A stretch of 64,000 nucleotides of DNA from Eledone cirrhosa (Eukaryota), in assembly GCA_964016885.1 (NCBI GenBank), contig OZ024741.1:318122001-318186000 (forward strand), read 5' to 3'. The translations under genes were made by a program, and so were the position numbers. Shown here piece after piece: positions 14,640 to 29,254 of the stretch. Below the pieces are notes generated by a model. That model saw only the letters and a program-made list of their open reading frames with translations. It was not told the origin of the DNA and ran no database searches. The stretch's first letter is position 1; every line of letters begins with the position of its first letter.

Positions 14640-14938
14640 CTGTAAATAATAAAAATAATAACAATGATAATAATAATAATAATAATAATAATAATGTTTT
14701 CTTTATTAACCACAAGGGTTCACATAAAGTAGACATTAAGGACAGTACAGGACAATACAGGACGGTACAAAAGGGCATTTCTGCGTGTAAAAAAACAGAG
14801 GTTGAAATAAAATAACAAAGAAAAATTCCCCAATAGGGGGGAGACTTCCAAGGGACATTTGTGGAGAAAGCCCATTAAAAGACCACAGTGGCCCTGACCA
14901 CCAGGGCAAGTGCCCTCTCCCAGTTTTCCACCTTTAAT

Positions 14939-17900
14939 TTACAGACACATACTCAGAGAAGGCCCGTTCATTCGGGCCATACTTGCTTCTCTCACCCATC
15001 TTTCAACAAAATGCTGGGAAGAGAGCACTTCCCTCTCTACCCTGATTTTCCTTTTCAAATGAAATTTGAAAAAGTTAATCAGGGCATCACCGAAGAGGTA
15101 AGTGCTCGTCTTCAGCCCTTTCAAACGTGTCCACCATACTATCTTTTTCGCCATGGCCACCAGACAGATAAAAACTGCCTGCCCTTCCAGGCTAAAGGAA
15201 GGGGGCGGGGCAATCCTCACGATGGACTCAGCTGATAGCTGGATCCGTCCTACACGTGACAGCAGGTGTTCGACATAAACCCACAAGTCAGCAATGCTCG
15301 GACACTGGACGAGTGCGTGCAGGACGGTTTCGTCGCCCTGCGCGCATCTCGGACATGCCCGGCTGACGGCACCTCCATGCCTGTAGAGTTTATCCCGAAC
15401 TGGCAAAGCTCCTCGGTAGCACTGCCAGGCCAGGGATTTCTGGAAGTTGTTCATAGGCCCCGGCCCGAAAGTCCTTCCGAAGAGATTGGCTAGTTGATTT
15501 TCGTCGACGCCTAGAGTTTCTCCAAGTATGTCGTCGCTCTTCCCCTCCACTAATCCCCTATAGAACGCCAAGGTGGAGTTTCCACCGATCACATTGCCCG
15601 ATTGGTCGAGGGCTGTGAGCGCCTGAAGACATTCCAGTCTCCAAGCGCTCCCTCTCGGTCTTCGCTTGACCCAGGACTGCAGCTCCGTCAAGGAGACGAG
15701 CTGGGGAAAAACGTGTCTTGCAAACGGCGACCACACCTGATCACCGTCGAGGAAGAGGTGGAGATGTCGTAGCCTGAGCGCGTGTCTGCGCATCATCAGC
15801 CACGGCATGCCCAGCCCTTCACGTAGCGGGTGTTGACAGCAGATGGACCGCCTGACCATCGGAGCGCGTCCCTTCCACAAGAAGCGAAAGAGCAAACGCT
15901 CCAGCGCAGTCAGGCGGGGCTTAGGACAAGGTACGACGGTCAGGCGGTAGTAGATGACGGATGCGATGTACGCATTCGCCACCTCCGCTCGACCTTTCAG
16001 GGATAGCTTCCTCTCGGCCCATTTCTGGGTGAGAGAAGCCACCCTGCTCGTCACCTCGTCCCAGTTTTTGTCCGTCTGGAGGTCTGGACCGAACCAGACC
16101 CCTAGCAATTTAACCGGTCCGTCCGTCCAGCGCCCGACGACGCTGTTGGACGGCATGGACCTGCCTCTCCAGGTGCCGAGCTGCAGGCCCACTGACTTTT
16201 CCTGGTTGATCATTGCTCCTGTCACCGCTTCGTATTCTCTTAGTGTAGTGCCGATCGCCTCGATGTGTTTGGCGTTCGACACCACTACAGTGACATCGTC
16301 GGCATATGCTGATACAGATCTTCCGCATCCTAGTTCGCGCGGGACCCCCCTCAACGTCTCCAGTTTGTGCAGTAATGGCTCGAGAGTCAATACGTACAAT
16401 AGGAACGAGAGGGGACATCCTTGGCGGACCGAGCGCATGATGTTGAACGGTTCCGAAAGGTGACCGTTCACTCTCACTACAGAGCAGATGTCGCTGTGCA
16501 TGGCAGCGATCCAGCCTCTGAAGACGGGCCCAAAGCCAGCCGCCCTCAGGACTGCCGTTAGGTAACGATGGTCGACCCTATCGAAGGCTTTCGACTGATC
16601 TAAATTGATCAAAGACCCACCCGTGCCAGGTTCCCTAGCTACCCTCTCTACGATGTATCGCATGAGGTGGAGGTTGTCGTGGATGGATCTGTCGGGAATG
16701 GCGCATGTCTGTGCCTCTCCCACCAGACCACCAACGACAAGCGCCAACCTCTTTGCTAGCACCTTGGCCAAAATCTTGAACTCTGTGTTTAGCAGAGTTA
16801 TGGGCCTAAAATTATCTATGTTATCCCCCTTGTTCGGATCCTTTCTCAGCAGCGCCACCGCTCCTCGGCTCACAGAGTTGGGAATTCTCCCGTTCTGTTG
16901 CCAGTTGCAGTAGACGTCCGCCAAGAGGCCTCCGAACAAGTTTGGCATTTGTACGTAAAGTTCATAGGGCAGACCATCCAAACCAGGCGATTTACCCCTT
17001 GTGCAACTAGTCATTGCATCCCGTACTTCAGCGGTTGTTATCGGCTTTTCGCAACACTCCGCCTCAGTGGCCGAAAGCCGCGGCAGTCCGTCGAGGTAGA
17101 CACTAAAGTCCATCCCTCGATCCGGCCCGCCACTGCCCCCGAACAGTTGAGCGAAGTGTCGCTGAAAAGCTTCACACATTTGCCCGGGATCGAGTAGCAT
17201 GCCCCCGTCGTGGTCCACCAAAGACCGGATCGTGGCTTTGTTGCCACGACGCGCCTCCGCCACTCGGGCCCATTGAACGGCTTTCGTCCCCTCGTGTCTG
17301 AGAGCACGCACCCTAGCTCTGACAACGCAGCCTTCGTGCTTTGCATTGAAGAATTGGTCAAGGGCCAATTTCGCCGCAAGTACGTCGGTCGCGATGCCTT
17401 TGCTAAGCGCCTCATCTAATTTTCTAACTAATTCTCCCTCTGCTCTATTTTTCTCTATTGCTAAAGTCTTACTAAACCTAATGGACTCTATTCTAATTGC
17501 TCTTTTCAGAGCAAACCACCACTTGTTGTTGACGATGACCCCCGTCAACGCCCGCTTAACTAGTTCGCTAATCCGGTCTCTGTAGGCCTTGCGCGCTGGT
17601 AAGGACGCGTTTAGCTTCCAGTAGCCGGGTCCTTGTCTATGAAGCCTATCTAAGTCAAGCACACAGATCACGAATTTGTGGTCCGTGTAGCTGACTATCT
17701 TGAATTGTGGACAGCCTATGCTAGACCTATCTATTTCCCTACAAAATACTCTATCTAGATATGATCTGGATGACCCTATGCGATTTGTCCAAGTCCACAT
17801 TGGCACATTCGGGAAATCCAATCGGTACCTGTCAGACATTTCAAAACGCCTGAGCAGGTTGGTGAGGCTCTTGCACCCTCCACCCCTATCCGCTAATCCC

Positions 17901-18358
17901 ACACAGTCTCAGCGTGCATCTAAGATCCCGTTCCAGTCGCCCACTAACACTAAAGAGCGGGACGTTCCAAGAAAGGTCTCCAGACGCCGGAAGAAATCAG
18001 GCCGCCCTGCTCCTGTCGGGGCATAGACGGCCACTAGCCTGAAAGCTTGCCCGTCTCCGCTGGTCACGTCCAGCACCACCAGCTTACCCTCTGGGTCCAG
18101 GAAGATGGCCCGTATGGCGAGATCCAAACCTCTCCGAAAAAGCACAGCAACTCCTCCCCCCGATCCAGGACGGCTGGGAGATGCGTACACATCGTAGCCG
18201 CCAAAGATCGGTGCGAAGGCCCGTGCTTCGGAGATTCTGGTCTCGCTGATGGCCACTACATCTATGTTTAGTGACCTGAGGTCGTTGAGCAGGTGACCCT
18301 GCTTCCATGACGACCCCAAGCCACGCGCATTTATGCTGCCTATTCTGAGTGAGGTCAT
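14939..18358 (-). pseudogene. Tx1 ORF2 (APE endonuclease, RT, CCHC), 1140 codons with one in-frame TGA at 17909-17911
   Basis: SINARGL, ISETR, GDWNGILD, SYLDRVF, YTDH; KSPGLDGLP, FRPITLLN, LDQSKAFDRV, VRQGCPLS, YADD; CPRC..ETVLHALVQC; copy B has TGG (W) at the stop position. Confidence 0.92.
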
Positions 18359-18393
18359 GTTTAAAATAGAGTGGAAAAGATGGGAAAGACCAC

Positions 18394-28092: not shown

Positions 28093-28613
28093 TTTCATTT
28101 ATTAGCCACAAGGGCCGACATGTAGGGGACAATACAAAGACAGGGACAGTGGGGGTTTACAATAAGGTCGAGTAAAAGTGCACAATGGCAAGACTAATTT
28201 AACAATGAAGATGTAAGAATATAAAATAAACTATGCATAAATATAACAAAATAAATTCCCCGATAGGAGGTGGACGACCCTGGGGTGACTCGGGTACCCC
28301 ACCAATCCTGAAACACCCTGCGCTTCTAGGGCACCCAGAGAGAGCACCCCTCTCCTCAAGTTAGCTAGCCTATAGGCGCATGGCCAGAGTAGGCCCATTC
28401 ACACGAGCCATTCTCGCCACCTTTTAGCAAATGTACTGGGGGACAGCACTTCTCTCTCCACCCTCACCTTCCTTTCCAGGTGAAACTTGACGAAGTTGAT
28501 GAGGGATTGGCCAAAGAGAAAAGTGTCTGTCTTCAGTCCTTTTAACCTGGTCCACCATATAACCTCTTTCGTAACTGCCACCAGACAGGAAACTTTCCTG
28601 CTCTTCCTGACTT
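28091..28613 (-). mobile_element. Short 5'-truncated Tx1 copy C (ORF2 C-terminus plus 3' UTR) between (AAT)n tracts
   Basis: KEVIWWTRLKGLKTDTFLFGQSLINF matches copy B; same 3' terminus. Confidence 0.9.
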
Positions 28614-28633
28614 AATAATATAATAATAATAAT

Positions 28634-29235
28634 TGTTTCTACTTTTGGCACAAGGCCAGCAATTACCCAGTACATTACTGGTACTTTATTTTATCGACCC
28701 CGTAAGGATGAAAGGCAAAGTTAACCTCGGCGGGATTTGAACTCAGATCGTAAAGGGACGTAACTCTTTGCGTCAAGCATGGCGTCCGACCCTCTACTGA
28801 TACTGCCAATCCACCGCCTATAATAATAATTGTTTCTACTATTGGCACAAGGCCAGAAATTACCCAGTACATTACTGGTACTTTATTTTATCGACCCCGT
28901 AAGGATGAAAGGCAAAGTTAACCTCGGCGCGATTTGAACTCAGAATGGCAAGGGCCGTAACTCTATGCGTCAAAGCATGGCGTCCGACCCTCTACCGATA
29001 CTGCCAATCCACCGCCCTATAATAATAATGATTTCTGATTTAAGCACTAGGCCAAACATTTTGGGAGAGGGAAAAGTCGATTAAATCGATCGCAGTGCAT
29101 TGCTGGTATTTCCTTTTATCAAACCCGTAAGGATAATACGTAAAGTTGGCTTCAGGGCGATTTGAACCCAGAATGTAAATATCCATAACTAAATGCTACG
29201 AAGCTTTTTGTGTGGCGCTCTAACGATTCTGATAA
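28634..29235 (-). mobile_element. Three tandem main-family SINEs (28634-28818, 28831-29017, diverged 29030-29235) separated by short (AAT)n
   Basis: Same head, core and tail as 21950-22133 and 52216-52404. Confidence 0.88.
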
Positions 29236-29254
29236 CAAAATCTAGAAATAGAAA

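Follow-up and report, generated by a model that had tools for sequence, protein, structure and literature searches.

Tx1-like, Dong/R4 and SINE retroelements stacked in an (AAT)n microsatellite within an octopod intron

Introduction

Insertion into simple repeats is known for long interspersed elements (LINEs) with an apurinic/apyrimidinic endonuclease (APE) and for those with a restriction-like endonuclease (RLE). In the Tx1 clade, Kibi targets (TC)n, Koshi targets (TTC)n and crocodilian Tx1 elements target (TTCC)n and (TTTC)n (PMC4494074), and Dong, of the R4 clade, is specific for (TAA)n in insects, molluscs, cnidarians and ostracods (PMC7998251, PMC2887409). Two lineages can also meet on one target: Keno (Tx1, APE) and Utopia (RLE) evolved the targeting of U2 snRNA genes in parallel (PMC4640811), and TRAS1 and SART1 of Bombyx insert in opposite directions into (TTAGG)n (PMC7265360). 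For R2, whose RNA carries upstream 28S sequence, exact 5′ junctions were modelled by annealing of the cDNA to the target (PMC3774820). Stringent pairs of LINEs and short interspersed elements (SINEs) share a 3′ stem-loop (PMC3472496, PMC3747384), and the Octopus CORE-SINE OR2 is named in PMC4758252. In the octopus papers, L1-Tx1 and Dong-R4 elements are described as abundant or recently active (PMC13282606, PMC8967140, PMC9115989, PMC10294476) and transposon hotspots are reported (PMC13282606), both without target analysis in the parts of these sources available to us. Here we analyse a stretch of 64,000 nucleotides from Eledone cirrhosa (assembly GCA_964016885.1, contig OZ024741.1, positions 318,122,001 to 318,186,000; hereafter, the window). 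It contains a 14.6-kb stack in which (AAT)n tracts link three Tx1-like LINEs (Tx1-A and Tx1-B, both full-length, and the truncated Tx1-C), a truncated Dong (R4) LINE and four SINEs.

The Tx1-like LINEs resemble Kibi and Koshi in having two open reading frames (ORFs), an APE endonuclease, a reverse transcriptase (RT) of the L1 group and a simple repeat at both ends. They differ in their target, (ATT)n, a unit without C that is shared with an RLE element, in their cephalopod host and in the thousands of near-full-length copies. The Dong copies differ in nothing essential from known Dong: the order is RT, CCHC, RLE, (TAA)n stands on the sense strand at both ends and truncated copies are flanked by the tract. 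Here, at least two families share this target with a Tx1-like lineage. As with Keno and Utopia, APE and RLE elements use one target; however, U2 is a low-copy gene with one site that is destroyed, whereas the repeat considered here is abundant, used on opposite strands and regenerated. As with TRAS1 and SART1, two LINEs enter one simple repeat in opposite directions, two to three units suffice and annealing of RNA and target is proposed. Those two are both APE elements of the R1 clade and confined to telomeres, whereas here an APE and an RLE element are dispersed, introns included.

We conclude that the stack most probably arose by separate insertions of a Tx1-like and a Dong/R4 lineage into (AAT)n on opposite strands, together with SINEs likely moved by the Tx1-like enzyme, each insertion likely leaving more repeat behind.

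Results

The (AAT)n microsatellite as a target of two LINE lineages

Exact pattern counts over the whole 3.0-Gb assembly gave 2,369 heads of type A1, the head type of Tx1-A, and 2,291 of these (96.7%) are directly preceded by an exact, in-phase ATTATTATT. As background, 40 stretches of 10 kb at even spacing have (ATT)3 within 12 bp upstream at 614 of 796,000 positions (0.077%). Smaller samples agree. The best Tx1-B heads all lie in a tract (30/30; three perfect units in 26, by eye), as do five of five heads of a further type. When 40 A-type 3′ ends were followed upstream, their ORF2 was found to occur with an alternative 5′ half (A2) as well; the traced A1 and A2 copies comprised 30 with heads, all 30 in tracts, eight truncated ones and two that ran off, and among the 38 resolved A-type copies 30 thus have full length. 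A full-length RNA could bring its own repeat leader, and truncated copies therefore test more strictly for a target. Among 27 truncated Tx1 copies, 13 touch (ATT)3 at the 5′ junction (3/8 A, 10/19 C), an excess over background of several hundredfold; this count is by focal copy and includes the window's own Tx1-C and three odd cases, namely, a short head deletion (locus L231), a SINE/5′ untranslated region (UTR) recombinant (L242) and an inversion (L243). Both the A1 heads and the truncated copies exceed the 20% of flanks made up of the repeat that serves as criterion for microsatellite-specific Tx1 families (PMC4494074).

At least two Dong families use (AAT)n, and both element ends read (TAA)n in the sense direction. 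The tract is touched by 21 of 25 truncated Dong 5′ junctions, by all five full-length heads and by all 19 3′ ends of the second family. Absence of the repeat from most 5′ junctions, which the initial annotation had named as speaking against its view, is thus seen neither in full-length Tx1 copies nor in Dong, and applies to about half of the truncated Tx1 copies.

Other repeats carry such tracts before any insertion. In the 5′ region of an RTE-type LINE, 23 of the 30 best copies have an empty tract, four have a Tx1 3′ end and three are otherwise different, one of them carrying a Dong piece. Two further RTE copies (L211, L233) each contain a complete Tx1-A2, and the flanks on either side of it are intact and in register. 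A tandem repeat that is empty, with six units, at the random locus L198 is filled by A2 at L220 and L240 and by A1 and B copies at L123 and L453. In a third repeat with a four-unit tract, at least two of 30 copies have a Dong-type end. Since the RTE and tandem-repeat tracts occur both empty and filled, by several Tx1 subfamilies and by Dong, the repeat is a target that exists before insertion and not a tail alone.

The RTE-type LINE is young (about 1,455 candidates; L393-L422), with the (ATT)n tract and a poly(T) just before its ORF. Because the tract is carried ahead of the ORF, this LINE spreads landing sites for Tx1 and Dong. The third repeat (L423-L452) has 9,361 exact matches, (TA)n after its tract and occasional Dong and Tx1 insertions; in the window it lies at 51364-51375 and 54514-54525, adjoining Penelope-like RT sequence.

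Specificity of the Tx1-like LINEs is looser than that of Dong, because 14 of the 27 truncated copies have no (ATT)3 at the 5′ junction and 15 of 60 Tx1-B/C 3′ ends are without three perfect units. All loci are best matches and hence young copies. Some of the tract-less truncated junctions join Dong or SINE pieces directly, and these may be deletions. One might suppose instead that the Tx1-like family is not target-specific: it would enter any ATTA(T) site with an RNA that brings (ATT)n at both ends, and only Dong would seek tracts, colonising the tails of Tx1 and SINE copies afterwards. Besides the tract-less half of the truncated copies, some copies at lone ATTAT sites with unique duplications fit this view, as do 3′ tails longer than typical genomic tracts. 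However, a clear unique duplication outside tracts was found in none of 50 full-length copies, truncated copies meet tracts far above background, several subfamilies occupy the pre-existing tracts of the RTE and tandem repeats, and in 33 tracts a Tx1 head stands behind a Tx1 tail. We therefore regard a non-specific Tx1 family as unlikely.

Polarity of insertion and recurrence of stacks

The loci used for polarity and stacking were chosen through element ends, so that the following counts are not genome rates. Read on the ATT strand, 148 tracts come after a Tx1 3′ end, 97 before a Tx1 head and 88 before a Dong 3′ end in reverse orientation (from either of two families). The polarity that the initial annotation had called strict is kept in 87 of the 88 tracts where an element end was recognised on each side. 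Its proposal that a Tx1-like APE lineage and the RLE lineage Dong share one microsatellite, on opposite strands, is borne out.

Stacks recur genome-wide. A Tx1 tail runs directly into another member in 72 of 148 tracts, and one of 38 random tracts has members on both sides. The first 100 A1 heads of the listing are separated by 99 gaps, of which 13 span 7 kb or less, all of them between heads on the same strand, with about 0.7 expected (hand count). Filled tracts are also longer: in 50 copies the median is 10 units at the 5′ end and 16 at the 3′ end, and in random tracts it is 5. Both results uphold the idea of a landing pad renewed by insertion. In four tandem pairs the similarity does not exceed that of dispersed pairs, so that arrays grow through fresh insertions. 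We also considered whether the stack arose by tandem duplication and rejected this: each member is closest to dispersed copies and tandem neighbours are not more alike.

It is very improbable that stacks formed mainly by ectopic or unequal recombination between the (AAT)n tails of elements inserted elsewhere. Microsatellites do recombine, as is generally known, and some Dong-Tx1 junctions are microhomology joins (L230, L253). Nevertheless, the filled RTE and tandem-repeat sites retain both flanks in register, the target-site duplication of one stack member, SINE3, is intact, and the likeness of members to dispersed copies rather than to their neighbours also speaks for separate insertions.

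Layout of the stack and the host gene

The stack and the adjoining exon are made up as follows (positions in the window).

14429..14639, minus strand: host exon of an endothelin-converting-enzyme (ECE)/neprilysin-like gene; starts MSERPF and includes a transmembrane segment
14645..14695, no strand: (AAT)17 tract, degenerate toward the exon; Tx1-A 3′ tail/target and AT-rich stretch ahead of the host acceptor
14696..20688, minus strand: Tx1-A, full-length Tx1-like LINE with head type A1; 98-99% to dispersed copies
20689..20706, no strand: (AAT)6, separating the Tx1-A head from the truncated Dong 5′ end
20707..21889, plus strand: Dong/R4-type LINE, 5′-truncated; end of the RT thumb, CCHC, RLE nuclease and 3′ UTR; about 98% to other copies
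21890..21950, no strand: (TAA)20, common to the Dong 3′ end and the SINE1 3′ end, tail to tail
21951..22133, minus strand: SINE1, tRNA-type head; about 94% to the nearest copies compared
22134..22151, no strand: (AAT)6, Tx1-B tail
22152..28060, minus strand: Tx1-B, full-length, second subfamily; 95-96% to dispersed copies
28061..28090, no strand: (AAT)10, linking the Tx1-B head and the Tx1-C tail
28091..28612, minus strand: Tx1-C, 522-bp 5′-truncated copy of a third subfamily
28613..28633, no strand: imperfect AAT tract
28634..28818, minus strand: SINE2
28831..29016, minus strand: SINE3, with a 12-14-bp target-site duplication formed from a short tract; identical to dispersed copies
29030..29236, minus strand: SINE4, older subfamily; 77-79% to the nearest copies compared; no (AAT)n at the 5′ (outer) junction

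Order, strands and junctions are as the initial annotation described them and far beyond chance at the background frequency given above. Sequence inspection, a tandem-repeat search and self-comparison agree with it that no member is inserted inside another. Its placement of the junctions in the trinucleotide tract holds generally, except at the outer (right) junction of the last SINE, at about 29236. The tracts around the last SINEs have three to four units and serve also as target-site duplications. The only matches of the stack to Rfam were chance microRNA-like ones in adjacent repeats; neither a ribozyme nor a tRNA family was recognised.

The host exon is identical in 70 of 70 amino acids to the ECE homologue of Octopus vulgaris (78-98% for other exons, levels that point to an octopod related to, but probably distinct from, this species), and its splice acceptor, 14640-14641, lies directly under the first tract. 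The upstream coding exon lies about 648 kb further along the contig on the same strand, located by a weak match (E 0.01, 89% over 18 amino acids). Since the stack ends a few bases from the acceptor and the upstream exon is so far away, the stack occupies the 3′-terminal part of a very large intron of the ECE-like gene, with the Tx1 copies and SINEs in sense to the gene. An assembly artefact, with reads joined at AAT tracts, is highly unlikely: the ORF1s of the two long Tx1 copies contain homopolymeric stretches of 19 and 23 Gs that look error-prone, but the stack is free of Ns and gaps, coding exons on one strand flank it on both sides, the same junction types occur at hundreds of loci and the members are too divergent to be collapsed copies.

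Several further features were observed in and around the stack. The (ATT)n tail of Tx1-A makes up most of the stretch ahead of the host acceptor, and its AATAAA lies about 70 nucleotides upstream in sense (14640-14711); AATAAA-type Tx1 signals on the sense strand of the ECE-like gene intron are found at 14711, 22166 and 28105. The Dong copy has a micro-inversion of about 30 bp at 20870-20900 relative to other copies. To the right of the stack, 29480-30030 is the decayed nuclease region of an older R4/Dong-type element on the same strand as the Dong of the stack. The next intron of the host gene contains the 3′ part of an RTE-type LINE (13600-14388). An old Tx1-like RT fragment (68-71% to Tx1-A/B) lies outside the stack on the plus strand at 60455-61120. 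Long low-complexity tandem arrays with open frames in every phase occupy 42450-47830 and 30105-32172, and a gap of 200 Ns is found at 47911-48110.

Structure and classification of the LINEs

Pfam domains of the APE endonuclease (PF03372), RT (PF00078) and zf-RVT (PF13966) were found in Tx1-A, and the first two in Tx1-B. The best PDB matches of the Tx1-like ORF2 are LINE-1 EN and ORF2p. In Tx1-A, ORF1 lies upstream of ORF2 and has one CCHC knuckle (CX2CX4HX4C) and a premature stop, ORF2 (APE-RT-zf) also has one premature stop, and the 3′ end includes a small hairpin and AATAAA. A CCHC knuckle is a trait of Tx1 ORF1s. Both ORFs of Tx1-B are disrupted by frameshifts or stops; copies with both ORFs open are found elsewhere in the genome (L130, L134, L139). 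The elements of the stack had been called unrelated. This does not apply to Tx1-A, Tx1-B and Tx1-C, which are subfamilies of a single lineage (A and B are 76% identical in nucleotides over ORF2), nor does it fit the SINEs, whose 3′ ends resemble those of Tx1 (see below).

The Tx1-like RT is 35-40% identical over about 410 amino acids to vertebrate proteins labelled TX1/YTX2. The Tx1-like elements are members of the L1 group and are likely to belong to Tx1 proper. A quick RT tree, built without an L1 row, does not settle the relation of the octopod clade to the TX1-labelled clade. The nearest relatives are about 52% identical; metagenome relatives are 24-41% identical, with an (ATT/AAT)4 tract at four of 80 loci, which gives no guide to the target of the sister lineage.

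The A2 5′ half stands on most A-type 3′ ends, with the switch near the ORF1/ORF2 boundary (L211-L245). At least five Tx1 head types occur, each starting with G after the tract, with ORF1/5′UTR swapping on a shared ORF2. A stretch of the A2 5′UTR resembles the 3′ terminal motif of the SINE and Tx1 (2750-2790 in both L213 and L242); in L242 this stretch is where a SINE and the LINE are fused.

In translation, the Dong copy ends in a CCHC zinc knuckle, preceded by RT, and a PD..D-type nuclease motif, with a weak match of the nuclease region to R2 proteins (E 0.009). The copy is 5′-truncated, and its R4 assignment is based on domain order and insertion in (TAA)n.

The SINEs and their kinship with Tx1

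SINE1 has putative A- and B-box-like motifs, recognised by eye, and the SINE may be the Octopus CORE-SINE OR2. The initial annotation had included the SINEs among the elements docked in (AAT)n; a specificity of the SINE for this repeat is not supported. Of the 30 best copies 28 could be placed, and (ATT)3 flanks only one of these on both sides, namely, the copy in the window itself; 20 of the 28 have a duplication of 11-21 bp. In all 69 SINE copies at all loci, a set enriched for stacks, a tract flanks both sides in 15, the 3′ flank starts with ATTA in 62 and a duplication of at least 8 bp is present in 51. The 31 duplications outside tracts have the consensus start ATTAT, with C or T as the preceding base in 27. 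The window has five other SINE pieces, and none of them adjoins a tract. Accordingly, the SINE is not microsatellite-specific and inserts at ATTA(T) with duplications of 8-21 bp.

The score of the last 40 nucleotides of the SINE against Tx1-B is reached by 0-4 of 1,000 shuffles and that against Tx1-C by 1-49; comparison with Dong and RTE reveals no resemblance (660-1,000 of 1,000). The three Tx1 ends fold to a 4-bp stem with the same 5-nt loop (CUUGU; stem 3-4 bp), and subfamily changes are found on both sides of the stem. The insertion signature of the SINE recurs in truncated copies of Tx1-B (L307/L456) and Tx1-A (L032), which have 16- and 13-bp duplications that start with ATTAT and contain non-ATT letters. 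Because truncated Tx1 copies bear this signature and the 3′ ends are alike, we infer a single enzyme for both; the SINEs were likely moved by that of the Tx1-like LINE. Three observations argue in the other direction: likeness to Tx1-A is weak (32-285 of 1,000 shuffles), the hairpin common to SINE and Tx1 ends is not more stable than in shuffles, and the SINE RNA, although it can form the Tx1-type hairpin, has a different one as its minimum-energy fold.

Like stringent LINE/SINE pairs, the SINE and Tx1 seem to have a terminal 25-nt motif and an insertion signature in common; unlike in those pairs, the partner would be a Tx1-like LINE. In the parts available to us, PMC3747384, PMC3472496, PMC4758252 and PMC5804259 name no Tx1 partner for an octopus SINE.

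Proposed mechanism and history of the site

By the established rules of target-primed reverse transcription, (ATT)n behind an element indicates priming on the A-rich strand, and (AAT)n behind it indicates priming on the T-rich strand. The Tx1 APE nuclease would nick the A-rich strand at the short motif 5′-ATAAT/R (top strand Y/ATTAT), a placement based on the duplications of the SINE and the truncated LINEs. The pyrimidine-purine step is nicked by other APE elements too. In the microsatellite this motif recurs every 3 bp, and the second nick would fall about 8-21 nucleotides away. The Tx1 RNA may then prime when an (AUU)n end made by read-through pairs with the strand that was nicked; such priming would make LINE copies favour tracts, and the SINE, with the same tail motif, would accept a lone ATTA(T). 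The RLE of Dong would nick the T-rich strand. Each insertion would lengthen the tract, leaving fresh repeat for the next element.

Full-length copies do not carry the unique part of such a duplication even when the tail is short: none of six full-length Tx1-B copies with tails of one to five units has unique downstream letters at the 5′ junction, although short tails could also stem from later tract contraction. The exact 5′ junctions would be most simply explained if full-length Tx1 RNA started with a few target-derived AUU units and its cDNA annealed to the tract lying upstream, a course already modelled for R2. We put this leader step at about even chances, because no ribozyme was found: a home-made descriptor of the hepatitis delta virus (HDV)-like motif had hits in none of three Tx1 heads and none in shuffles either. 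In this the Tx1 heads are unlike R2, and their leader is hypothetical.

As to the history of the site, SINE4 was likely first, followed by SINE2 and SINE3 and then by the LINEs, which would have entered the tails as these grew; Tx1-A would be one of the youngest members. SINE4 is the probable founder because it is the oldest member and has no outer tract; SINE2 and SINE3 are placed next because their duplications are nested.

Discussion

The convergence of APE and RLE elements on one target (Keno/Utopia) and the sharing of a repeat on opposite strands (TRAS/SART) are already known, and the stack can be explained by known principles. Two points are apparently new in that we found neither in the literature: a Tx1-like lineage that homes to (ATT)n and numbers thousands of near-full-length copies, and its probable SINE partner, which exposes a short core motif. 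Our literature search, which covered neither subscription papers nor Repbase, Dfam or the supplements of PMC4494074, found no report of ATT-specific Tx1 elements or of Tx1/Dong stacks.

A more far-reaching scenario can be offered tentatively. In an undescribed octopod Tx1-like lineage, the nuclease would read a motif of 5-6 nucleotides and the RNA would have target-derived (AUU)n at both ends, making the lineage microsatellite-homing and its copies mostly full-length. The same lineage would mobilise the abundant SINE of the genome in trans where the motif stands alone; with Dong, it would build self-extending multi-kb stacks that help to inflate octopus introns. We view this scenario as possible rather than probable.

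For the Tx1-like LINEs, the results add a new target repeat and a case of APE/RLE convergence with a self-renewing target. With a LINE that is tract-bound and has exact 5′ junctions, versus a SINE that uses a lone motif with ordinary duplications, the respective shares of the nuclease and of RNA-target pairing in specificity become testable. The high fraction of full-length 6-kb insertions is of interest to retrotransposon-based gene insertion. For octopus genomes, the stacks offer a concrete cause of transposon hotspots.

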